64,000 nucleotides of DNA, taken from positions 4,320,001 through 4,384,000 of the forward strand of contig CAVWVQ010000003.1 in NCBI GenBank assembly GCA_963758525.1, read 5' to 3'. The stretch's first letter is position 1, and every line of letters starts with the position of its first letter. A program made the translations under genes and the position numbers. Positions 29,040 through 63,924 of this stretch are shown piece after piece. This DNA comes from an uncultured Phycisphaerales bacterium (GTDB lineage: Bacteria > Planctomycetota > Phycisphaerae > Tepidisphaerales > Tepidisphaeraceae). The notes beneath the pieces are model-generated. The model was not told the origin of the DNA. It worked only from the letters and a program-made list of their open reading frames with translations, and did not search any database.

Positions 29040-31519
29040 TCACACCGTCATTCCCGCCGCCTCGTCGCTTTGCTGCGACGCCTTCATCTGCTCCCACTGT
29101 TCCAGCGTGATGTTGCACTCGCGGGCCTGCGAGCCCTTGTATTCCCCGAGGATTCCTGCGATCGCCATTTGCTCGATGAGACGAGACGAGCGGCTGTAAC
29201 CAATCGTCAGCCGGCGCTGCAGCAGACTGACGCTGCCGCGTTTAGTCTCCAGGACGATGCGGACGGCATCGTCGAACAACTCGTCCTTCTCCATGTCTGC
29301 GCCGCCGCCGGGCATCGCCCTGATCTGTACCAGCTCGGGCTCGTATTGCGCGTCTGCCAGGCTGCGCACCAGCTTGACGCTCTCGCGAATTTCCTTGTCG
29401 TCAATAAACGTTCCCTGCGATCGGATCGGTTTGCTCGCTCCCGGCGGCAGGAAGAGCATGTCGCCCTGGCCGAGCAGCAACTCGCCGCCGTTCTGGTCGA
29501 TCACGATGCGGCTGTCCATCTTGGTGTTTACGCGAAATGCAATCTTCGACGGCATGTTGGATTTGATCAGGCCGGTGACCACTGTGGCCTGCGGGCGTTG
29601 GGTTGCGACGATGAGATGAATTCCGACTGCTCGCGCTTTTGCGCGAGGCGAACGATGAAGCTTTCGACTTCCTTGCCGGACGTCATCATCAAGTCGGCCA
29701 GCTCGTCGATGATGATCACGATATACGGCAAGTGTTTGGGGATCTTCGCCTCTTCCTCTGGGGTGCTGGGATTGAATCGCTCGACCAGCTCCTCCCGCGT
29801 GAGGCGGTTGTAGCCGGCGAGATTGCGCACGCCCGCCTCCGCGAGCACCTCGTACCGCTCGTCCATCTTCTCGCAAGCCCATTCCAGCACGCTCGTCGCC
29901 CGGCCCGTGTCGTTGATTACAGGGCACATGAGGTGCGGAATATCCTTGAACGGCGCCATTTCCACGACCTTGGGGTCGATGAGAATCAACTTCACCATGT
30001 CCGGCCGCTGCTTATAGATGATGGACATGATGATGGTGTTGATGCAGACGGACTTGCCGGACCCGGTGGTGCCCGCGATCAGGCAGTGGGGCATCGCAGC
30101 CAGATCCGTCACCAGCGGCTCGCCGCTGGCGTCTTTGCCGAGAAACAGCGGGATGGTCTGCTTGGCGGTGGCGTCCGGCGCGAGCTGCATCAGCTCCTTG
30201 AGGCGGACTTTTTCTTTCTGCGCGTTGGGCACTTCAATGCCGACGGTATTCTTTCCCGGCACCGGTGCGACGATGCGCACGGCCACCGCCATCAGCGAGC
30301 GGGCAATGTCGTTCGACAGCGCGGTGATCGAGGAGACTTTGACGCCTGGCGCCAGGGCCAGCTCGTACATGGTGATGACCGGGCCGGTATCGATCTCAAC
30401 GACGTGTGCGTCGATGGAGAATTCCGTCAGCGCCTGCTCGAGCACGGCGGCCTTTTCGCGGACAAATTGCTCCTGCGACTCGGCATAGCCGTGCTCGGCA
30501 TCGTCGAGCAGCGTCCAGTCGGGCAGGTTGTACTCGCCCAGTTCCTTCGGCGCCGGCGGCGGGGGGGACGTCTGTCGCGGTTTGAGCGTGTTGGGAAGCT
30601 TGACGATGATGTCGGCCTTGGGCGCGGGCGGCGGCGCGATTGCCTCGGTGATAACGGTCTCTTCATTTGCCGCTGCTTCCGAGGGAGCCGGATCGGACGC
30701 GTCCGCGTGCGCGGCTTCATCTGCCGCCGCGGATTCGTCGTCGTAACTGAGATCGATCAAATCCTCGTCTTGCGGCTCCCGCGCGACCGGCTCCCGCGTG
30801 AGCAGCACCGGCGGCTTCAGCGGCGCGTCATCCTCATCTTCCCGGGCCAGATTGCGCGGCGCGGGCTTCCTCTTGGGAGCCGCGGCATCCCTGGTCACAA
30901 ATTTCGGCAATGAAGGGAGCCGCGGGATGGTGACGAAATTCCAGTGAATGTTTGGGCGGTGCTTCTTCACCTGCTCGATCGCGGTGCCGACCATCGCGGG
31001 TGTGCGCAGGACCAGATCGTCTGCCGCCAGCAGCAGGCCGACGAGCATGGTGGTTGCCAGGATCAGGCGCGTGCCGGCGGTGCTGAAATAATGCTGCAGA
31101 AAGTGTGATGCGCTGATGCCGATGATTCCGCCCTGTCCTTCGGGGAAACCGTCGTAGGAGCCGGGCTTGAAGTGATGGATCGCGGACGCAAAGGCGACGG
31201 AAAGCAGCAGCAGCCCGATCGACCGCATCCACAAATCGCCGACGGCGTTGCGGAACGCGTGCAGCACAACGCACACGCCGCTGAAGAAGAGGATGGGGAA
31301 GATTCCCTGCCCGATGAACAGATACAGGTAGTAGGCGATAAATGCGCCCGCCACGCCGCAGAGGTTGCGCGTGGGGGGGTTGGGATCGACGGCATGGCTG
31401 GGCCAGTCGGTCGGGTGGAAGCTCCCCAAAGCGAGCAGCATGAAGATCCAGCCGCCGACGGCCAGATACATCGAGACGTTGCGAAGGCGATTGCGATCCG
31501 GTTCGAAATTTTCACGCAT
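29040..31519 (-). CDS. ftsK: DNA translocase FtsK; frameshift at ~29635
   Basis: 4TM N-terminus, AGTTGSGKS, IDELADLM, RLAQK|ARAVGIHLIVATQRP, C-terminal gamma domain (SVSLLQRRL.IGYSR). Confidence 0.95.
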
Positions 31520-47130: not shown

Positions 47131-49202
47131 TTACGCGGAGTGCTCGATGCGGGGCGCAACGCCGCCGATGTTAAGAATGCGCGTCGTCAGCGAAGAAGGG
47201 GTCGGCCCGGCGGGCCCGCGGTCCAGAATGTCCTCGGCATAGCATCGCAGCAGTTCTCCGGTGGCGATCGCGCACGCGATCGTGCCGCCAGGCGCATGCG
47301 GCGCATCGCCGTCAAACAATTCGTTGATCAACCCGAGCCCCGCTCCCCGCAGTCGATCGAGACACGGTTGAAGTAATGCCGCCGCATGCGCACGGGCTTC
47401 GTCGCTGCGGCCGCTCAACCGGAGGCTGGCTGAGATGTAGGGGCCCATCAGCCAGGGGAAGACGGTGCCGTTGTGATACGCCCGGTCTCGCGAGACAATC
47501 GCGCCGTTGTAATGTCCGATATAGTTCGCGTCGCGCGGCGAAAGCGTTCGCAGGCCAAATGGCGTCAGCAGGTCGCGACGCAAGAGTTCGAGAACCCTTT
47601 CGCAGCGGTCCGCCTGCAGCACTGGGAAGGGAAGGGACAGGGCCAGCACCTGGTTTGGACGGATCGAACCATCGGGAACCTCGTCTCCGACGACGTCGAA
47701 ACAGCACCCGGCCATGTCGTTCCAGAATCTTCGGTTAAACGCCTGATGCACGGAGTGCGCCAGATCAGCCAGCTCCGTTGAGAGAGGAGTGCGTCCAAGC
47801 CGCTCGGCGAAATCCGCCGCGATGCACAGGGCGTTATGCCACAGCGCATTCAATTCCACCGGCCGGCCCGCGCGGTGTGACCACCCAATCGCCGGCCTTG
47901 GCGTCCATCCACGTTGTTGGAATCCCCGGCTCCCGCGTCGAAATCAGTCCGTCCCGATCCATGCGGATGCCCAGGTCCGTCCCCTTTCGATACGCCTCGA
48001 TGATCTTCATCACCACGTCAAACAGTTGTCGAACGGTGGCTTGGTCATCGCTGTATCGGAAGTACTGAAACACCGCGTGAACGAACCAGAGGGAGACATC
48101 CGCGCCGTGATAGAGCGGCTCATCAATCTCCTCCGAAAAATCGGTGGGCAACAAGCCATTCTTCAGATGCGAGGAAATCTCCAGGAGCAGATTCCGCGCC
48201 TCGGCAAAACGCCCGGTCGTGAGGTACAGGCCGGTAAACGCAATCAGCGTGGCGCGCGGAGAGGGAGCAAACCAGTGGTATCCCGCGATACAGGCCGCAA
48301 CGGCTTGTTCGTCGCCGCGCCGCGGCAATGAGACCGGGAAGCAGTCCGCCGCGCGGCGCAGCGCATCGAACGCCGGATCGGGAGAGGGCTCACCGTTGCG
48401 ATTGACGGCTTTGATGTCTCCCTGCATCGACGCAAACGTCTGTGCGTTCACCTTCTGGATTGCTTCCGCAAGTACGATCGGATCGGCCGAGCAGACGAAA
48501 TGCGCCGCCTCTCCGGGTACTAGCTTGAGATGCAGCACGCCGGGGCTCCACAGATCCTCCAGACCCCCGTAGCCGCGTTCGCGTTCCCGCCGATAGATCG
48601 TGTTGAGGTACCAGCAGGGCGCATCGTGAAAGTCGCCGCTGCTGGCGAAGAACACCTCGGGGCTTTTGCTGGTGGGGGCTACCTGATAATGGCCCGGCGA
48701 GCGCAATTGTGCCGCGAGCCGGCCGTTGCCCTGGTAAGTAAGTTCGTGAATGGGACGCAGGGCGAAGAGCGGGCGAACTTCCAACTCGACCGACCGTTCC
48801 GCGCCCAGTAATGTGTATGTCAGAACCACCGCGTTTTCGCCGCGCAGAAGGCGGACCTGCTTTTCGAGCGTCCAGCCGGCCGACTGATATGCCCAGCGCG
48901 GATGCGGCTCATTGCTGAAGGCGCAAGAGCTGATCCCCACGGGGAAAGATCGCGCCGGGATATTCGTTGCAACCCAGATCGGCGTGGCCGGAGTTCCAAA
49001 CAACGGTTTCTTCAACACGCGACAGCAAAACGTGACGCCGCACCGGTGGCGCCATCGCGGCAACGAGCAATCCATGATAGCGGCGGGTATTCAAGCCTGG
49101 GATCGACGAGCTGGCATACCCACCAATCCCATTGGTGATCAGCCATTCCCGGGAGATCAGAGTGTCAAAATCCAAATCGGCTGGCGACAATCCCTCGTCC
49201 AC
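47131..49202 (-). CDS. Amylo-alpha-1,6-glucosidase (glycogen debranching enzyme-like); frameshifts at ~48922 and ~47870
   Basis: REWLITNGIGGYAS..RRYHGLL, IAGYHWF, TWMDAK..VTPR|GRPVELNALW, RPNQ, PFGLRTL, AYHNGTV. Confidence 0.9.
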
Positions 49203-50675: not shown

Positions 50676-50986
50676 GAAAGCCGATTCTCCGCGGGGCCGG
50701 CACCGTCCGGCACCGCGCCAGGGAGTCAAAAGTTGAGAATCAAAGGTGAATGGACATTCCGAAAGCCAAATGGATTGCCATCCGTTGGTCTTCCTCTCGA
50801 TTGGAAGATCCGCCCTTTACGCATCCCGTCGAACCGACCTTTCAGACGTAAAGGTGTAAGACTCCATTCCCGCGCCACGCCCAGGAAACCGCGATCAGCT
50901 TTACGCTTCTTTACGTTTTTTTACGTTTGCGGGCCGCCCAATCAATGTTGACAAAGTCTGCCTGGCGTACCGCGGCGGCGCGGCGC

Positions 50987-51910
50987 GGGGAAACGGCGAG
51001 CATGCTCGCCGGCTACACGAAGAGATGCGCAGATGCGAAAAAACCCGGAATCCGGTCCCGTCGTTCCTCTTTTCCCCGTGTAGCCGGTGGGCATGCCCAC
51101 CGGTTTCCCCCTTCCGACCTGTCGTCTCCGCCCCTGAAAATTCACGGCGAGCATGCCTGTCGGCTACACTGAAGAGAGAATGGTCCGCTGGTATCACGCG
51201 ATCTTCAGCGCTTACGGATTCTGGCTTCCGAACGATCCGCGGGGGTCGTGGTCGGACTTTGTGGGGTCGTGGGAGCTGTTGAAATTTGGGTGCGCAACCA
51301 CGACGGGCGAGAAGCGGTCGCTCGCGGCGGTAGCGCATGACGCGGATGTGCGCCGGAGGGCGAAATTAGCGCTGAAATATCCGCCGGTGCGGTTCAACGA
51401 CGCCCAGCGTCTCGCGATCGGAGCAGGCATCACCCAGGCCTGCGCCGAATCGAAGATCATTCTTCACGCCTGTGCGATTGGCTTCGATCACGTTCACATC
51501 GTCGCCGCCCGACATACGAAACGCGTGGAGCAGATCGTCGGACAATTGAAGGGCCGATCCACGCAGCACATGGGGGCGGCTGGATGTCATCCGATGCAGG
51601 CGGCGCTCCCGTCGACACGACCGCTGCCTACACCGTGGTCCGAGGGGTGCTGGTCCGTCTTTATCAATGACCACGAGCAACTCAGATGTGCGATCAAATA
51701 CGTCGAGCGCCATCCGCAAAAGGAAGGCCTCCCAGCGCAACGATGGACCTTCGTCCGTTCCGTCTCCTACGTGTAGCCGGTGGGCATGCCCACCGTTTTC
51801 TTTGGGTGTGGAAGACGTCGGACGGGGGGAAACGGCGAGCATGCTCGCCGGCTACACAAAAATACTTGCTGATTTCCCACTCTTCGTTTAGCCGGCGGGC
51901 ATGCCCGCCG
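50987..51910. repeat. Six GTAG-type REP copies flanking the RAYT gene
   Basis: GTGTAGCCGGTGGGCATGCCCACCG or the inverse CGGCGAGCATGCTCGCCGGCTACAC at ~50994, 51078, 51145, 51771, 51833, 51887. Confidence 0.9.
51180..51776 (+). mobile_element. REP-associated tyrosine transposase (RAYT, IS200/IS605 Y1 superfamily)
   Basis: YGFWLPNDPRGSWS, HUH motif DHVHI, catalytic Tyr in IKYVERHP; its stop codon is the TAG of a REP. Confidence 0.85.
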
Positions 51911-51945
51911 TGGTCCTTCGCGTTGAAAATCTTTTCACCGCCGTA

Positions 51946-51990
51946 TTGACAAGATTTCCATTCCGAACGTATACCTAACATTGTACGAAC
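51946..51990 (+). promoter_or_regulatory. imuA promoter with candidate LexA-type operator GAAC-N7-TAAC-N7-GAAC
   Basis: TTGACA at 51946-51951, TATACC at 51970; GAAC 51965, TAAC 51976 and GAAC 51987 at 11-bp spacing. Confidence 0.6.
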
Positions 51991-51994
51991 AGAG

Positions 51995-52975
51995 ATGAGC
52001 CATGCGATTTGTTTCCTGTCACGACGGCAAGCTTCAGGTGTTAAGTCCGCAGGAGTTCCGCGCCCGACCGCCCAGGCTTTCACCACCGGCTTGGCACCGC
52101 TGGACGCACTGGCGCCAGGAGGGGCGTTTGCCCGGGGAGCGGTGCATGAAATTCTCACCGCCCCCGAGCATGGCGCCGCCCTTTTTTTTGCGACGCTCCT
52201 GGCCGGAGCGTCGGCAGCGCCGCCGGGAGGCACGGGGGATGGGGAAGGCACGAAGGCAGTCGCCGCGGCGACTAAACTGCGGCACCAAGGCACAGGGGGA
52301 AGGATGGAGGAGGGATTCAGAGAGGGTTCAGGGTTCAGGGTTCAGACTTCAGCACAAAAATCCCCTTCCTCCCCTTCGTGCCGCAGTTTAGTCGCCGCGG
52401 CGACTGCCTCTGTGCCTTCGTGCCTTCCCCCTGATCCCCCTTCGTGCCTTGGTGCCTCCGTGCCTTCGTGCCGGCGATTCATCTGCTGGTGCGATCCCAC
52501 GCGGGAAATTTATCCGCCGGCGTTGGCGAGTCATGGCATCGCATTGACGCATTTATTTCTTCTGCATCCGAACGGCCCGCGCGATCTGCTCTGGGCGATT
52601 TCTGAATCTTTGCGATGCAAGGGGGTCGCCGCCGTCGTGGCCGCTCCGCCACGTCTCTCGCGCGTCATGGCGCGCCGTCTTCAGCTTTCCGCCGAGCGCG
52701 GCGGCGGCGTCGGATTGCTGCTGCGCAGCACCAACGCGCCGGGAATTGATTGCTATGCCGCCGCCACCCGCTGGCTGGTGCGCCCCCAGGCTGGGGAGCG
52801 CACCGTGCAACGATGGAACGTTCAACTGATTCACGGTCATGGAGGATGTATCGGACAGACCGTCATCCTGGAGGTAAGCCGTGAAAACCATTCTGTGCGT
52901 GCACTTGAATCGCTGGCCAATCGACCGATGGAGAAGAGCACAGGACAAACTTCGGGCGTTGCCAAGGCCTCGTGA
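51995..52975 (+). CDS. imuA: ImuA (RecA-like mutagenesis protein) with an in-frame hairpin insertion (~52221-52476)
   Basis: TGLAPLDAL.PGG..RGAVHEI, WCDP..IYPPAL, DLLWA..ESLRC, ARRLQLSAERGG, AAATRW. Confidence 0.88.
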   Translation: MSHAICFLSRRQASGVKSAGVPRPTAQAFTTGLAPLDALAPGGAFARGAVHEILTAPEHGAALFFATLLAGASAAPPGGTGDGEGTKAVAAATKLRHQGTGGRMEEGFREGSGFRVQTSAQKSPSSPSCRSLVAAATASVPSCLPPDPPSCLGASVPSCRRFICWCDPTREIYPPALASHGIALTHLFLLHPNGPRDLLWAISESLRCKGVAAVVAAPPRLSRVMARRLQLSAERGGGVGLLLRSTNAPGIDCYAAATRWLVRPQAGERTVQRWNVQLIHGHGGCIGQTVILEVSRENHSVRALESLANRPMEKSTGQTSGVAKAS

Positions 52976-54873
52976 TTGCCAAGCCGTTCCTCCTCAAAAA
53001 CAAATTCAAAACTTCCGGAACGCCACCCCCTCTCCCGGTACTCCGGGAGAGGGCAGGGGTGAGGGTGATTTCGAGCACCAACGGCACTTGACGTTCCAAA
53101 TCACCCTCACCCCAACCCTCTCCCGGAGTACCAGGAGAGGGGACAATCAAGCAGCCTCTCTCCTCAATACACATTCTTCCCAAGTTCCCCTGGTCATCGT
53201 TCGCACCGTCGCCGATCGGCAGGTGATTGTTTCTCTGTGCGACCTGGCCGCCCAGCGGGGAATTCGCCGGGGGATGACGCTCACGCAGGCCCGGGCGCTG
53301 TGCGCCGATGTCGAGCATGCCGAACACGACCCGCCGGCTGACCGTCGGGCGCTGGAGGCGCTGGGTCGCTGGCTCACGCGTTTTACGCCGACTGTGGCGC
53401 TGGACGCCAGTGAATCCGCCGACGGCATTTTCCTCGACATCACCGGCTGCGACCGGCTGTTTGGAAGCGTTGAAAATATTGTCCATCAGGTGATCGACGC
53501 CTTGGCTCGCCTGCGCATCAGCGCCCGCGTCGCAGTTGCTCCCACGCCTGGGGCGGCCTGGGCCTTGGCTGTCGCGGGGGAAAACGGCGATATCGCGTCC
53601 ATCGACACGCTGGCGGATATGCTTGCGCCGCTTCCTCCTGCCGCATTGCGCATCAGCGACGATCTTGCCGCGGCATTGCATCACCTGGGGCTGGTCCGCA
53701 TCCATCAGGTGATCGACCTTCCCCGCGGCCTGCTCCCGGTACGTTTCGGTCCCGAATTGCTTTTGCGCATTGATCAGGCACTGGGCCGAATCTCCGAGCC
53801 GCTGGTTCCGCTCCAATATCTTCCCCCCATCATTGCGCGTATGGATTTTGACGGCCGAGTCTCTTCGCTCGAAGCCATCTGGGCAGTCTTTCAGCAATTG
53901 ATCGGGCAGATCATCGCGCAGCTGACGCATCGCGGCTGCGGCGCTCGCCGGCTCGATATCGAGTTGCTCCATCTCCACGAGCCACCGGTCCGCAAAAGCA
54001 TTTTTCTCTCCCGTCCCTCGCGCGATGCGGTGAATTTGTTTAATTTATTTCGGTGTGGGATGGAGGAGGGGAGGGAAGGGACAAAGGGACAGAGGGACAA
54101 AGGGACAAAGGGAAGACAAGAAGGCACGAAGGCAGTCGTGGCGACTGCCTCCGTGCCTTCGTGCCTCTCTTCCCCTCCCCCTTTGTCCCTTTCCCCTTCC
54201 CTCTCCGACGACGGTTACAGCGGCATGATCCTCCATGTCCCCTTATTTGAGCCAATTTCCGATCAGCAACTCGGCCTTCTCGGCCAGGAAGAATATGACG
54301 GGCAACTCGAGCTCGATCGTCTCATCGAACGGCTGCGGATTCGCCTGGGAGAACAGACCGTCATGAGCACCCAATTAACCGAATCCTACATCCCCGAGCG
54401 CGCCTGGAGCGCCTGCGCGAGAAAGCAGGGCAGTAAAGCAGTTGAAAGGAAAGAAGAATTCCCACTCTAAAGCATCCCCTTCCTCCCCTTCGTGCCGCAG
54501 TTTAGTCGCCGCGGCGACTGCCTTCGTGCCTTGGTGCCTTCCCCCTGATTCCCCTTCGTCCCTTGGTCCCTTTGTCCCTTTGTCCCTTCCTCCTCCCATC
54601 CGTCCCCTTCACTTATTCCTTCATCCCATCGAAATCCGCGTGATGGTCAGCCCGTCGGATGATGCCGAAGGGCAGCCCGCCGCGTTTACGCATGAGGGGC
54701 AGGTCCGCACGATCGTTCACGCCGTCGGCCCCGAGCGTATTGCCGGGCGGTGGTGGGACGGCCACGACAAAACCCGCGATTACTTCGACGTGGAGGACGC
54801 CAGTGCCAGAAGGTTCTGGCTCTTCCGCGTGCGGGAAACCGGGCGGTGGTATTTGCATGGAGGGTTTGAGTGA
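52881..54873 (+). CDS. imuB: ImuB (inactive Y-family polymerase), three repeat insertions; frameshift at ~54415
   Basis: GIRRGMTLTQARAL, RFTPTV, DGIFLDITGC..LFG, LIERLRIRLG, PERAW; C-terminal RPLHL..GPERIAGRWW..RDYF..FWLFR..WYLHG lies in ORF 54442..54873. Confidence 0.88.
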
Positions 54874-54879
54874 AGAAGC

Positions 54880-55146
54880 CCGGGGAGAAGTCAGGAGCAA
54901 GAAGCCAGAAGTAAGAAGCAGGAATTGCAAATTGAGGATTGCAAATTGCAAAATTGAAGGGCGGCAATTTGAGATTTGAGATATTTGAGATTTGAAATAT
55001 TTGAGTCCTGGTGACCCAAAGGAGTAAGAACCATAAGGAGACAAAAAAGCCCCGTCCCCCAAAATTTGCATTTTGCAATCCTCAATTTGCATTTTGCAAT
55101 TCCCTCTTCTGACTCCTGGCTTCTGGCTCCTGGCTTCTGACTCCCT
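54880..55146. repeat. Composite inverted 7-mer arrays (AGAAGCC/GGCTTCT, GCAAATT/AATTTGC, ATTTGAG) between imuB and dnaE2
   Basis: Left arm 54885-54956 is the reverse complement of right arm 55062-55145; a further copy of the left arm lies inside dnaE2 at ~55636-55722. Confidence 0.85.
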
Positions 55147-55159
55147 ACTTCTCCAAAAA

Positions 55160-58100
55160 ATGCCCGAAGCTCCCAACCCCAAACTTCGCGAAGCTCCGCC
55201 GCCAGCATTGAAATCGGTGGCTCCCTCCTCCTGCGCCTATGCGGAGCTGGACGTCAAAACCAACTTCTCTTTTCTCCGCGGCGCTTCGCATGCCGACGAA
55301 CTGGTCTATCGTGCCGCGGAGCTGGGATATCGCGCGATCGGCATCACCGACATCAACTCTCTCGCCGGTGTCGTTCGTGCCCATGACGCGGCCAAGGAAG
55401 TCGGCCTGAAGCTTCTCGTCGGCTCCCGCCTCACGTTTTCCGACGCTCCCGACCTGCTCGTCTGGGCCAGCAATCGCGCGGGATACGCCAGGCTTTGCAG
55501 AATGCTAACCCTGGGAAAACGCCGGACCGAAAAAGGAGAATGCGATTTAAGGCTGGAGGATTTTTTGAATGATAATGAGGGGTTGGTGGCGGCCGTGGAG
55601 GGGGATCAAAGAGAGGCACGAAGGGAAGGAAGGAAGCAGGAGTCAGGAGCCAGAAGCCAGAAGTCAGAAGAGGAAACCGAAGATTGCAAATTGAGGATTG
55701 CAAATTGCAAATTGCAAATTGAAGAACACCTCCTCTCCCCTTCCTCCCCCTTCGTGCCGCAGCAAGGTCCCGCGCGCGCGGGATGCCTTCGTGCCTCCGT
55801 GCCTGCATTAATTTCCCTCCGCTCCTCCCTCGGCTCGCGTCTCTCGCTGATTGCCGCCTGCTCTTATGGCTCGGACGATTCCTCACATCTGCGCCGGTTG
55901 GCGGAGCTGTCGCGCCAATGCCATATTCCTCTTCTGGCGACCAATGCGGTTCACTATCACGACCCGTCCCGCCGGCGGCTGCAGGACGTGCTCACGTGCG
56001 TTCGCCATGGCTGCACCATCGACGAAGCGGGCTTTCGTCTGTTTCCAAACGGCGAACGCTATCTCAAATCGCCGCTGCAGATGCATCGGCTCTTTGCCGA
56101 CTATCCGCAGGCGCTGCGGCGGGGGATCGAGATTGCCGAGCAATGCGACTTTCAACTCGATTCGCTACGCTATGAATATCCCGACGAACTGGTTCCGGCC
56201 GGGAAATCTCCCATCGAACATCTGGGCAATCTCGCCTGGGCCGGGGCGGCTGAGCACTATCCAGCCGGCATTCCTCAAAAAGTGCGCGATCTGCTCAACC
56301 ACGAGCTGACGCTGATCGCACAACTCAAATTCGAAGCCTATTTTCTCACCGTCCATGATCTGGTGTGCTACGCGCGATCGCGCGGCATCCTCTGTCAGGG
56401 GCGCGGATCGGCCGCCAATTCCGCGGTCTGTTTCTGCATCGGGGTCACGTCGGTCAACCCTGTCGAAGTCGATTTGCTTTTCGAGCGGTTTATCAGTGCC
56501 GCCCGCAATGAGCCGCCGGACATTGACATCGATTTCGAACACGAGCGCCGCGAGGAGGTGATTCAATACATCTACGAAAAGTATGGCCGCGAGCGCGCCG
56601 GGATGACCGCCGAGGTAATCACCTATCGCGGTCGCTCCGCGGTCCGCGACGTGGGCAAAGCGATGGGCCTCACGCTTGACATGGTCGACACGATGGCCTC
56701 GAAGCTCGACTGGTGGCATCGCGGCGTGCTGAGCGAGCCGCAACTGCAGGAGTGCGGCCTGGACCCCGCGGATCGGACGATTCGTCGAGTCATTGCGCTT
56801 GCCACCGAGTTGCTGGGTTTTCCCCGCCACTTGAGCCAGCACGTCGGAGGGATGGTGATGACGCGCGGACCGTTGTGCGAACTGGTGCCGATTGAAAATG
56901 CGAGCATGCCGGATCGAACTGTCATTGAGTGGGATAAGAATGACATTGACTCGCTGGGGATTTTGAAAGTTGATGTGCTGGCGTTGGGAATGCTGACGTG
57001 TATTTCGAAGGCGCTTAAGTTGATCAGTTGGACAAATGTCAGAGACGAAGGGACAAAGGGACAAAGGGACGAAGGGGCGGAGGGGGGAAGGGACGAAGGG
57101 ACAGAGGGACGAAGGGACAAAGGGGCGGAGGGGGGAAGGGACGAAGGGACAGAGGGACGAAGAGACAAAGGGGAATGTGGGGAGGGGGATAAAGAGGCGA
57201 TATCTGATGCACAAAGTCAATACGTTTCGGGATCTGGTTGCTTGGCAACGAGGGATGGAACTGGCGCAAACGACGTATTCAGTGATCCTGAGGATGCCAC
57301 AAGCGGAGAGGTTTCGTCTTTTCAACCAGATGTGGCGGGCCGCGTACTCGATCCCGTCCAACATCGCGGAGGGATACGCCCGACAATCCCGCCCGGATTA
57401 TTTGAAGTTTCTGCGGATTGCTCGCGGTTCACTGGCAGAGCTGTCTACTCAAGTCGAATTAGCAATCAATCTTCGAATTATTACTCCGTGTGCACAACTG
57501 CAGAACCTGGAGAATCTGCTGATGGAGGAGGATCGAATTCTACAGGCGCTGATTATGAGCCTCCAACGCAAAACGCGACAGGAAGAGCAAATGAGGGGAG
57601 GGGCAAAGGGACAAAGGGACTAAGGGACGGAGGGACAGAGGGTAAGGCAAATCCCTCCGCCCCTTTGTCCCTGTGTCCCTCTGTCCCTTCGTCCCTCCCT
57701 TCCTCTGCCCCTTCGTCCCTTCTCCCTCCCTTGTCCCTCTCCTCCTTCCGTCCCACCGATCCCGCTGTCTACCAAATGATGTCGAATGCCGACACGGTCG
57801 GCGTTTTCCAGATTGAGAGCCGGGCGCAGATGTCCATGCTGCCGCGGCTGCGACCCAACTGCTTTTACGATCTCGTGATCGAAGTCGCGATCGTGCGCCC
57901 AGGCCCAATTCAGGGAAACATGGTTCACCCCTATTTGCGACGCCGTTGCGGCGAAGAAAAAGTCACATTCCCCAATGAAAAACTGCGCGAAGTGTTGAGC
58001 AAAACCCTCGGGGTTCCGCTTTTTCAGGAACAGGCGATGCGCATTGCAATGGTCGCGGCGGGTTTTACCGCCGACGAGGCGGACAAGTTGCCGCGCCATG

Positions 58101-59468
58101 GCAGCATGGCGTCGGACCAGCGCGCTGGAGGCATTTCATCAGAAAATCGTCCAAGGCATGCTTGCCAATGGGTACGAACAGGAATTCGCCGAACAGTGTT
58201 TCGATCAGATCAAGGGGTTCGGCGAATATGGATTTCCCGAGAGTCACGCCGCGTCGTTTGCGCTGCTGGTGTATGTCTCAGCCTGGATCAAACGTTACCA
58301 TCCCGCGGCCTTCGCGGCGGCGCTGATCAACAGCCAGCCGATGGGTTTTTATATGCCTGCACAAATCGTGCGCGATGCCAAAGAGCATGGGGTGGAAGTG
58401 CTTCCCGTGGATGTGAACCGGAGCCAATGGGATTGCACATTGGAGGGGGGAAGGGACGAAGGGACAGAGGGACATAGGGACGAAGGGACGAAGGGACAAA
58501 GGGACAAAGAGGTAGAGGGACAAAGGGACGAAGGGACAGAGGGACATAGGGACAAATGTGCAGAGGGAACAGATGGAGGGATGAAAGGACAAAGTGCGAA
58601 GATGACATGGGGGGCCGGGGGACCAGTATTGCGATTGGGGTTCCGTCTCATCAAGGGATTTCGCGAAACGCATGCACAACAGATTGCCGAAGCCCGTGCA
58701 AAATGGAAATGTTTTATTTCCATCGCGCAATTGCATCGGACGACGCGGCTGCCTGTCGCATCGTTGCGCATTCTTGCTGAAGCCGATGCGTTTGGATCAT
58801 TGGGAATCACCCGCCGTGAGGCGTTGTGGGAGGTGCTGGAGTTGAAGGATGAGGAGGCAGGGTTGTTTGAAGGGGGGGAGGGAGAAGGGACAAAGGGACA
58901 GAGGGACAAAGGGACAAAGTGCAAAGACGCCATTCCCGCTGCCCCTTTGTCCCTTCGTCCCTTCGTCCCTTCGTCCCTTCTCCCTCCCCTGCCCGCTGCC
59001 CCTTTGTCCCTTTGTCCCTCAGTCCCTTCGTCCCTTCTCCCTCCCATGCCCCTCGGCCAGGAAGTCATGACCGATTACGCGACGGCCGGCCTTTCGCTCA
59101 AGCAACATCCTGTTGCGCTGTTGCGCGATGAACTGCAGCGCAGAAAGATCATTCGTTCCATAGACCTGGATCCGTTACGCAATGGGCGATGGGTTAGCGT
59201 CGCGGGATTGGTGCTGATCCGGCAGCGGCCTGGGACGGCATCAGGCATCGTCTTCGAAACCCTTGAAGACGAAACCGGCATCGTGAATCTGATTGTGAAG
59301 CCGGATATTTACGAGCGCTACCGCCGCGCCGCCCGGCATGCGGGACTGCTCCAGGCCGAGGGATATCTGCAGAAACAGGGACAGGTCGTTCACGTGGTCG
59401 CCAAACGGCTCTTCGACTTGAGCGATTTGCTGCAAGGCCACGAATTTCAGTCGCGGGATTTTCATTAG
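55160..59468 (+). CDS. dnaE2: Error-prone DNA polymerase DnaE2 (ImuC), four in-frame repeat insertions; frameshift at ~58092
   Basis: YAEL..KTNFSFLRGAS PHP domain, QGRGSAANS, PPDIDIDFEH, HLSQHVGG, KVDVLALGML, GVFQIESRAQ, YGFPESHA, RQRPGTASG, C-terminal SRDFH. Confidence 0.93.
57207..57623 (+). CDS. Four-helix-bundle protein (23S rRNA intervening-sequence protein / Avd-like family), nested in the +1 frame inside dnaE2
   Basis: TFRDLVAWQRGMEL..Y..MP..ERF.L..QMWRAAYSIPSNIAEGYAR...FLRIARGSLAELSTQ; AAAGAGG RBS upstream of the ATG. Confidence 0.9.
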   Translation: MHKVNTFRDLVAWQRGMELAQTTYSVILRMPQAERFRLFNQMWRAAYSIPSNIAEGYARQSRPDYLKFLRIARGSLAELSTQVELAINLRIITPCAQLQNLENLLMEEDRILQALIMSLQRKTRQEEQMRGGAKGQRD

Positions 59469-59474
59469 AAGGAG

Positions 59475-59670
59475 AGAAACGTGAAGACGTGAAGACGTGA
59501 AACGTGAAACGTGAAACGTGAAACGTGAAACGTGAAGACGTGACAATGCGAATCCGCCCTCTCACGTTTCACGTCTTCACGTTTCAGGTCCCGTTCCACG
59601 TTCCAATCACCGGCACTGACCGCCCTCTCACGTCTTCACGTCTTCACCCCTCCCGTCACGTTCCACGTTC
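59475..59670. repeat. Inverted pair of (GTGAAAC/GTGAAGAC)n arrays downstream of dnaE2
   Basis: About 9 ACGTGAA(G/A) units followed by TCACGTTTCACGTCTTCAC arrays. Confidence 0.88.
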
Positions 59671-59792
59671 CAATCACCAGTGCCCGTCTTTATCGCCCCC
59701 GTTGCCGGCAACTTATGTGGACTTGGGCATCTGACGATGAACCCGATACAGTCTGGTCCGGCGTGGCGTTTGCAGGCAATCTATAATTCATA

Positions 59793-62743: not shown

Positions 62744-63924
62744 TCACTTCAACCGAAGGATCGTTTCTGCAAGGCGCTCGTACTGCGACGCGCCGTTATA
62801 CACCTGACAGCACGGACGAACGTGCGCGGATCCGTTCCAATGCATCACGGGCACTTCGATCCGCTCTTCATGATACAACCGGCGCTGCATTACCGCGGCA
62901 TCGGCCACGCTCAGTTGGTCGAGCGGCGCGGGAAGACGCACCGTGCACATCGATCCCAGCAATCGGCCGTCTGGCGATGTGATCGGCTCGACGCCCCATC
63001 GTTCACACAGCATCTGCTGCACCCAAACGGCCAGTTGATGATTGTACTCGCGGACGCGGTCCCATCCGAGGCCGGCGAGGAAATCCAGAGCGGCGGGAAT
63101 CGCCAGCCAGGCGGCGACATCGCGCGTTCCCTGCCAGGAAAACTCGGCGGCAAACCCATCCCCCAGATAATGGCTGATGATCAACGGATGAATCGCGGAT
63201 TGACGATCCGGCCGAACCCATAAAAACGCGCTCCCTTTGGGGGCGCAGACCCATTTGTGCAGATTGCCGGCGTAGTACGCCGCCCCCAGCGCGCTCACTT
63301 GAAGGGGGAGCATGGCCGGCGGCATGTCGCGCCGTCGATGAGAACATCAATGCCCCGCGCAGCGCAGGCAGCGACGATTGCCTCGACGGGAAAGATCAGC
63401 GCGGTCGGCGAGGTGACATGATCGATGATGAGCAGCCGGGTCGAACGAGATAGTGCCGCGACAATGCGCCCTTCAATCTCCGCGGGAGAACGGATCGGCG
63501 TCGGAATGTCAATTTCGCGAACGACTGCCCCTGCTCGGCTGGCAACGTAGCGCATTGCCTGGCGGACCGCGTGATAAACGTGCGTCGTGGTCAGCAATTC
63601 GTCGCCGGCTCGAAGCTCGAGCGATCGAAGCACCGCGTTCACCCCTTCGGTGGCGTTGGTCACCATGCCGAAATCTTGTTCCGCCATGCCGAACGTCGCG
63701 CCGATGGCTCGCTTGACGTCGCCCAGCAAAGCCGGTGCGCTGCGATAAAGCAGCTCGATCGGCTCGGCTTCGACGCGCTCGCGCCACGCCGTGTGCGCGT
63801 CAAACACCACGCGCGGGACCGCGCCGAACGACCCGTGATTGAGAAACGTGATGCGCGGATCGAGCATCCATTGCTTCTCGATGTCCAGACCAAATGGGGA
63901 GGGTGAGTCAGCCAGGGCACGCAC
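62744..63924 (-). CDS. Aminotransferase class V PLP enzyme (isopenicillin N epimerase/EgtE-like); frameshift at ~63328
   Basis: FLNHGSFGA, NATEGVN, DHVTSPTA, IDGA|H, GNLHKW.CAPKG, WQGTRD. Confidence 0.9.

Follow-up and report, generated by a model that had tools for sequence, protein, structure and literature searches.

A four-helix-bundle gene cassette nested in dnaE2 among in-frame repeat inserts of an imuA-imuB-dnaE2 operon from a Phycisphaerales bacterium

REP/REPIN elements and their RAYT tyrosine transposases comprise a gene within inverted repeats, with many empty repeat copies dispersed in the genome. Another gene-bearing element, the helix-45 intervening sequence (S23p) of Coxiella 23S ribosomal RNA (rRNA), is excised by RNase III via a 28-bp stem, as described in passages of PMC4990558. 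Here we analyze a window of 64,000 nucleotides from an uncultured Phycisphaerales bacterium (assembly GCA_963758525.1, contig CAVWVQ010000003.1, positions 4,320,001 to 4,384,000), in which the SOS mutasome operon imuA-imuB-dnaE2 carries eight in-frame repeat inserts. The largest of these, within dnaE2, holds a complete four-helix-bundle gene in a second reading frame, flanked by inverted arms of tandem 8-mers, and is referred to below as the cassette (Table 1).

The cassette shares with the REP/REPIN system a gene flanked by inverted repeats and dispersed empty copies, and a RAYT-like gene with REPs adjoins the operon; however, what the 8-mer arms enclose is not a transposase gene, and the adjacent REPs belong to a sequence family other than that of the inserts. 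Like the 23S rRNA intervening sequences of Coxiella and Leptospira, as portrayed in parts of PMC4990558, it places a PF05635 gene between complementary ends that form a long stem, and its distribution is patchy. Its host, in contrast, is the protein-coding dnaE2 and not an rRNA gene, its arms consist of 8-mers arrayed in tandem, and the host frame runs uninterrupted through the element, a dual coding that points to translation and not to excision as in rRNA. The inserts as a group had been likened to Rickettsia palindromic elements in a preliminary description of this DNA, and the likeness holds as an analogy, with dispersed repeats lying in frame in unrelated genes. As in those elements and the intragenic ERIC/MITE fusions treated in sections of PMC10969869, small in-frame repeats add peptides, also in housekeeping genes; here, however, several unrelated families take part, with no single conserved peptide and no one palindrome family of ~150 bp, the same loops are reused family-wide, up to eight inserts occur in one operon, and a gene-bearing form exists.

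The four-helix-bundle family is homologous to Avd of diversity-generating retroelements, according to parts of PMC10053308, but the nested protein scores below the Avd cut-offs (26 bits against 80 for NF033474, a weak match, and 22 against 40 in a second comparison) and the genes seen around the cassette include no reverse transcriptase; membership in a diversity-generating retroelement was therefore rejected. Gene order, domains and DnaE2 catalytic aspartates agree with those of known imuA-imuB-dnaE2 loci, as set out in portions of PMC6511836 and PMC12926913, and a term search of the available text of the latter found no passage on such inserts. In-frame repeats in genes and a four-helix-bundle open reading frame within the stem of 23S intervening sequences are already known, and the novelty lies in such a cassette inside dnaE2. 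A literature search, covering mostly titles and the beginnings of abstracts, with subscription papers and supplements outside it, found no paper on one nested in dnaE2 or any protein-coding gene. What the cassette shows is an element of the intervening-sequence type, equipped with a gene, that resides by dual coding within a protein-coding gene and does so again and again in one gene of different members of a bacterial class.

The preliminary description had read all the inserts as low-complexity peptides, but this one is more than that, holding a complete gene in another frame. The two arms are complementary to each other over 69 nt (91%), and the nested gene lies in the +1 frame relative to dnaE2, equipped with an ATG, a stop codon and an AGAGG-type ribosome site of its own. 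Its product clears the curated cut-offs of PF05635 (102 bits against 33.8) and TIGR02436 (107 against 24). Folding predictions close the cassette with a long stem (-319.6 kcal/mol; z = -7.3 relative to 20 shuffled sequences). The ratio of nonsynonymous to synonymous substitution rates (dN/dS) of the nested gene is 0.23 in its own frame, reflecting purifying selection, and core residues of the protein are invariant. The peptide read in the host frame, by contrast, is not conserved, so that this frame seems to be selected merely to lack stops; when the peptide was searched against public proteins, the window's own protein was the sole match, which is what an unconserved frame should give. AlphaFold modeling of DnaE2 residues 1-977 returned the inserts as low-confidence coil. 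Inside the cassette we found no HUH transposase family, nuclease, reverse transcriptase or transposase, and an intein was rejected on the grounds that no intein family matched and the host-frame peptide is unconserved. Stored protein P0001 is annotated with polymerase domains only, the long frame alone being kept, and nested copies are therefore likely undercounted.

Whole cassettes recur in the dnaE2 genes of relatives. Nine of the 80 best genome matches to the nested protein are nested in dnaE2, seven of them at the same site and in the same frame, one inverted at the same site (L104) and one after the WDCTLE motif (L101). Six of 80 metagenome matches are nested likewise, two of them apparently one sequence, and L304 occupies a third site, a thumb-side loop, in addition to the palm-fingers linker and the position after WDCTLE. 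In an even sample of the class (151 genomes, 44 with dnaE2 at 46 loci, of which one was unscored and two repeat an earlier search of this analysis), six of 45 loci besides the window's hold the cassette. Counting L033, about 20 distinct nested cases are found in total, from collections not de-duplicated against each other. The dnaE2 frame is open over every one of them, up to the contig end where the contig is cut. Across the genome and metagenome scans, the frame matching that of dnaE2 is stop-free in 14 of 14 same-strand nested matches but in only 6 of 145 non-nested ones. Under synonymous shuffling it stays open in 1.5% of trials with the window's copy and in 2% with L033, and the rates for eight further same-strand copies range over 7-47%. 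Purine runs resembling ribosome sites precede the ATG in the nested copies examined.

No other coding host appeared among the 160 matches, both scans having been seeded from the nested clade. L359, with only an antisense open frame and a host that was not recognized, was rejected as a nested copy. The family is found mostly between genes, and no non-nested match adjoins imuA, imuB or dnaE2. The nested gene, which the preliminary description missed, is the part of the system that does look dnaE2-specific. Of 73 relatives that could be scored, 46 have inverted arms, while none of 94 control positions does; within this genome, repeat clusters lie to the left and right of four of seven other four-helix-bundle genes and three of four GxxExxY genes, every gene having a unit of its own. 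Given this frequent bracketing by repeats, the short hairpins look like empty versions of such cassettes.

The carriers are scattered on the DnaE2 tree. Their union in one clade is rejected by the approximately unbiased test (p = 4e-128), and the tree calls for eight changes, at least five of them forced by strong branches. In one of the trees of the analysis, two rows from this genome with abnormal branches, probably products of faulty extraction, were ignored. Judging by named neighbors in the trees, the organism is likely a member of the Tepidisphaeraceae within the Phycisphaerae. Nested and host protein distances are uncorrelated (Mantel r 0.01, 12 rows) in a comparison made without seven of the 27 short-protein rows. 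The closest DnaE2 relatives of the window are empty at the cassette site, and the nearest relative of its nested gene (L098, 69%), also its sister in the tree, is intergenic and has the same arms. One genus contains both a filled allele (G051) and empty ones (G039, G075), with the arms bounding the insert. The 3' flanks of nested copies follow the host lineage, with no sign of co-conversion. Such natural filled and empty alleles of a small, testable unit could shed light on the movement of intervening sequences and of short tandem-repeat hairpins, as well as on the role of the widespread four-helix-bundle family.

The three genes of the operon lie in the order imuA, imuB, dnaE2 on one strand and form the gene set of a mutasome (NF033429 below cut-off; PF00817; NF004225 on both pieces of dnaE2). 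The aspartates of the PDIDID and KVDVL motifs of DnaE2 are invariant among 19 aligned sequences. Placing an X at the frame breaks, we reproduced the read-through lengths previously given for ImuB and DnaE2, the latter being ~350 residues longer than the usual DnaE2 of such operons; the start of imuA, formerly put at 51995, most likely lies at 52002. Alignments of DnaE2, ImuA and ImuB with orthologues of related genomes confirmed eight real insertions at approximately the coordinates first reported, and none contains a stop or interrupts the frame. In ImuB, however, the third insert and part of the first sit in linkers whose length varies naturally among orthologues.

Table 1. Features of the operon and its surroundings, in window positions
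Feature	Position	Strand	Remarks
REP-like palindromes, GTAG-ended	50974..51912	.	flank Y1 transposase gene; repeat system separate from inserts
Y1/HUH transposase, RAYT-like	51153..51776	+	PF01797 above cut-off; NF047646 below; directly upstream of imuA
Promoter-like region of imuA	51947..51990	+	TTGAC, then TATAC(C)CTAAC-N7-GAAC-like direct repeat; candidate operator
imuA	52002..52975	+	frame break near 52062, likely C missing from assembly
imuA insert	52221..52476	+	composite hairpin: GGCACGAA 8-mer arms, GCGACTAAACTGCGGC unit, CAGGGTT heptamers; ~81 aa beyond orthologues
imuB	52881..54873	+	frame break near 54415; 664 aa when read through
imuB insert 1	53024..53142	+	palindromic repeat translated as PSPGTPGEG; family of 134 genomic sites
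imuB insert 2	54062..54206	+	8-mer hairpin, GGGAC/GGCAC
imuB insert 3	54475..54597	+	mostly pyrimidine arm; 90% identity over 113 nt to imuA insert
Intergenic nested hairpin, imuB/dnaE2	54886..55151	.	CAGAAG and TTGCAAA heptamer arms; loop without gene
dnaE2 (error-prone Pol III alpha, NF004225)	55160..59468	+	frame break near 58092; 1436 aa read through
dnaE2 insert 1	55597..55830	+	PHP-domain loop; heptamer arrays and GGCAC hairpin; ~57 aa extra
dnaE2 insert 2 (whole cassette)	57030..57750	+	~226 aa extra in dnaE2 frame; replaces ~8-residue linker of E. coli alpha (575-583)
Left arm	57041..57172	+	tandem GGGAC(A/G)(A/G)A 8-mers
Nested four-helix-bundle gene	57207..57623	+	138 aa; PF05635 2e-29, TIGR02436 6e-31
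Right arm	57652..57726	+	reverse complement of 8-mer array
dnaE2 insert 3	58443..58595	+	behind WDCTLE; purine 8-mer arm
dnaE2 insert 4	58871..59045	+	ahead of OB fold; 8-mer hairpin, pyrimidine arm doubled
Downstream ACGTGAA heptamer hairpin	59476..59680	.	

The proposal that the operon is a hotspot of inserts was borne out. Repeat clusters were defined blind, as merged 15-mers occurring six or more times and without reference to the operon; the 6.47-Mb genome contains 1415 of them, and the operon, with 11, is the top-ranked 8-kb segment genome-wide (mean 1.75 per 8 kb; runner-up 9). Restricting the count to the operon's own repeat families, a biased choice, gives 13 against a mean of 0.63 and a runner-up of 6. 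As previously observed, no repeat cluster falls within polA, rho, lon, der or pgm of the window (the names other than polA are those of the preliminary description).

That the short inserts are special to SOS genes is not supported: they occur also in valS, pheS, carB, purL, tsaD, murJ and mfd. A flank-score screen yielded 90 in-frame clusters in 74 frames of this genome; 31 frames outside the operon were picked for repeat-like peptides, the others looking like repetitive proteins or paralogues, and Pfam named 27 of the 31, including the seven genes above together with nadA and mgsA. Across the family, inserts of at least 15 aa number 26 in 15 DnaE2 sequences, 7 in 15 Mfd, 4 in 13 ImuA, 1 in 11 PolA, 24 in 13 ImuB (a figure inflated by natural linkers) and 10 in 18 DnaE1, where five are one shared loop and one is a 461-aa block. 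The same four DnaE2 loops hold different inserts in 12 of 15 family sequences; many DnaE2 orthologues have no insert at all, and those with inserts carry unrelated elements. Both valS and mfd are recolonized at fixed sites across the family, and valyl-tRNA synthetase (ValRS) has two fixed sites with long linkers, present in five of the nine rows scored at one and in six at the other. The valS gene of G001 (L253:981-4787) holds an in-frame Y1/IS200-like transposase domain (PF01797, residues 516-576) within a 1269-aa open frame. The loops mapped in DnaE2, ImuB and ValRS appear to tolerate 30-240 foreign residues.

Two side observations concern these genes. At one Mfd site, the loci L229, L232, L234, L239 and L242 carry different repeat families, as in the window's genome. 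The 461-aa insertion in the DnaE1 of L080 (G024) follows GGYGFNK and has Cys as its first residue; we presume a resemblance to an intein.

Two frame breaks, near 54415 and 58092, had been ascribed to errors at GCGC. The ascription stands, but the count rises to three with a break in imuA near 52062, outside the insert. At that point an additional C is present in a public-run contig that matches at 99% identity over 151 nt; this is the sole break compared with other sequence, and contigs of the same run do not span the break in imuB. Homology located seven shifts in 46.5 kb of the assembly (~0.15 per kb), each next to a GCGC; valS holds one of them, and another is the dnaE2 break. A coding model flagged 305 frameshift-like junctions, 259 of which have GCGC within 25 nt (background 40%). 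About one break is expected in the operon where three are seen, a mild excess (Poisson p ~0.08). The three breaks are most likely assembly errors linked to GCGC, and a systematic error of this kind would mislead pseudogene calls. DnaE2 is a single open frame in 16 of 18 relative loci; one of the remaining two is cut by a contig end and the other (L043) is split. L043, from G008, is the sole relative with dnaE2 in two frames, the split falling just past the palm-fingers linker. Many genes of G000, valS included, are split near GCGC, and the sites in the window lie near 29617, 32692, 47881, 48909-49075 and 63295-63325.

On balance, we consider it probable, by a modest measure, that the inserts are copies of genome-wide repeats lodged in variable loops, likely parasitic, translated as disordered loops, filtered for an open frame and spread by arm-guided recombination or copying, with the mutasome likely still working. 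The arms would guide such copies into sites already holding an arm repeat; the inverted copy and the nested composites would then be accounted for as well. Arrivals that break the frame would be purged, and the short hairpins would be empty or partial derivatives of gene-bearing cassettes. dnaE2 may collect most of them by virtue of having several tolerant loops, being rarely made and having filled alleles that also move sideways. That the essential valS is about as insert-hot as dnaE2 supports the translation and tolerance of inserts.

Several points weigh against this account. The same insert load in valS makes tolerance less convincing as a sufficient reason for finding the full cassette in dnaE2 alone, and since valS of G001 tolerates an in-frame Y1 transposase of ~200 aa, tolerance alone leaves that restriction unexplained; the scanned loci of polA, valS, mfd and dnaE1 yielded no four-helix-bundle gene. 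Translation through the inserts is presumed, and the structure model is poor beyond the PHP domain (mean predicted local distance difference test score 57; 19 sequences). Synonymous divergence is near saturation, and pairwise values are blind to very recent relaxation. In the filled/empty trio, which has diverged at the site, a target-site duplication is not visible, and no mobility enzyme was identified. Lastly, the short-protein tree is poorly resolved and the pairs L107/L111 and L103/L104 group in both trees, which allows for some vertical inheritance with repeated loss.

Alternatively, the cassette may actively favor the SOS mutasome operon, being expressed upon damage when single-stranded DNA and recombination are abundant; the Avd-like protein, by binding the arms of its own cassette, would help to copy it into further dnaE2 alleles, and the short inserts would hitch-hike. 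This would suit the presence of whole cassettes at three dnaE2 sites and in both orientations (L104), with no other coding host in the 160 matches, as well as an arm unit that travels with the gene lineage (the window and L098) and the homology of PF05635 to the retroelement protein Avd, reported in parts of PMC10053308 and echoed by the weak NF033474 match. We nevertheless find it doubtful, although worth entertaining: the seeding of both scans with nested-clade queries overstates the host preference, the family is mostly intergenic with no non-nested match beside imuA, imuB or dnaE2, the inverted copy is unreadable from the dnaE2 transcript, the 3' flanks track the host lineage without visible co-conversion, and the cassette has neither nuclease nor reverse transcriptase. 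Equally tentatively, we speculate that an Avd-like four-helix-bundle gene with inverted short-repeat arms and no nuclease or transposase could define a type of selfish element whose homing target is the gene of the SOS mutator polymerase, where it would settle as a second, overlapping frame, be expressed upon damage and seed loop-adding hairpins genome-wide, with the rRNA intervening sequence as one case. An action on mRNA, raised in the preliminary description as hairpins that tune mutasome expression, is far less likely in our judgment; the stems would be cut by RNase III, as in rRNA intervening sequences, or would slow ribosomes, and so dampen mutasome output. The long closing stem and a build like that of the Coxiella 23S intervening sequence (in the passages of PMC4990558 cited above) speak for such an action, but turnover at the same sites, from no insert in many orthologues to unrelated elements in others, tells against a conserved regulatory role, some inserts consist of one arm only, and the same hairpins occur in valS, pheS and carB. 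Moreover, cutting without re-ligation would destroy the mRNA, and after precise removal an open frame would no longer be needed, yet one is always kept.

Domestication of the nested gene as a mutasome accessory, kept for host benefit, is likewise improbable. Selection in its own frame, the invariant core residues and the purine runs before its ATG would fit, yet few dnaE2 loci of the class carry the cassette, the closest DnaE2 relatives are without it, different lineages occupy the same site, and close relatives lie between unrelated genes. Least credible of all is that the operon is a decaying pseudogene cluster, soaking up repeats under relaxed selection, as might be suspected from its three frame breaks in 7.4 kb, coding scores below those of housekeeping genes and the heaviest insert load among relatives. 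Against it, GCGC-linked breaks occur genome-wide and the public contig has the extra C at 52062; the catalytic aspartates are intact, the inserts are stop-free, and the terminal DnaE2 branch of the window is ordinary in length (0.23, compared with 0.21-0.26). The dN/dS of the DnaE2 core, where synonymous divergence is finite, is 0.06-0.20 on both sides of the break, similar to the 0.14-0.16 of DnaE1; purifying selection acts on the polymerase core, and the relaxed pseudogene that the preliminary description had allowed for is not supported.

Upstream of the operon, the GTAG-ended REP has eight genomic sites by pattern search. A TAAC element precedes imuA in the window and in all 12 relatives displayed and overlaps the likely -10 element; the TATAC(C)CTAAC-N7-GAAC-like motif, conserved among relatives, is a candidate repressor site of Phycisphaerae and bears on a possible damage-inducible (LexA) control of the operon, and the motif upstream of imuA was not recovered as a regulon motif. 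The inserts at 52221, 54062, 55597, 58443 and 58871 start, by eye, directly after a GAG or GAA codon followed by a G-rich run, possibly a micro-homology with the purine arm. One copy pair of the PSPGTPGEG-type repeat of imuB insert 1 brackets a DUF559 gene; at G000:C3:1210238-1211239 (L056) a DUF559 gene in pieces, bracketed by palindromes of this type, is read into the next gene.

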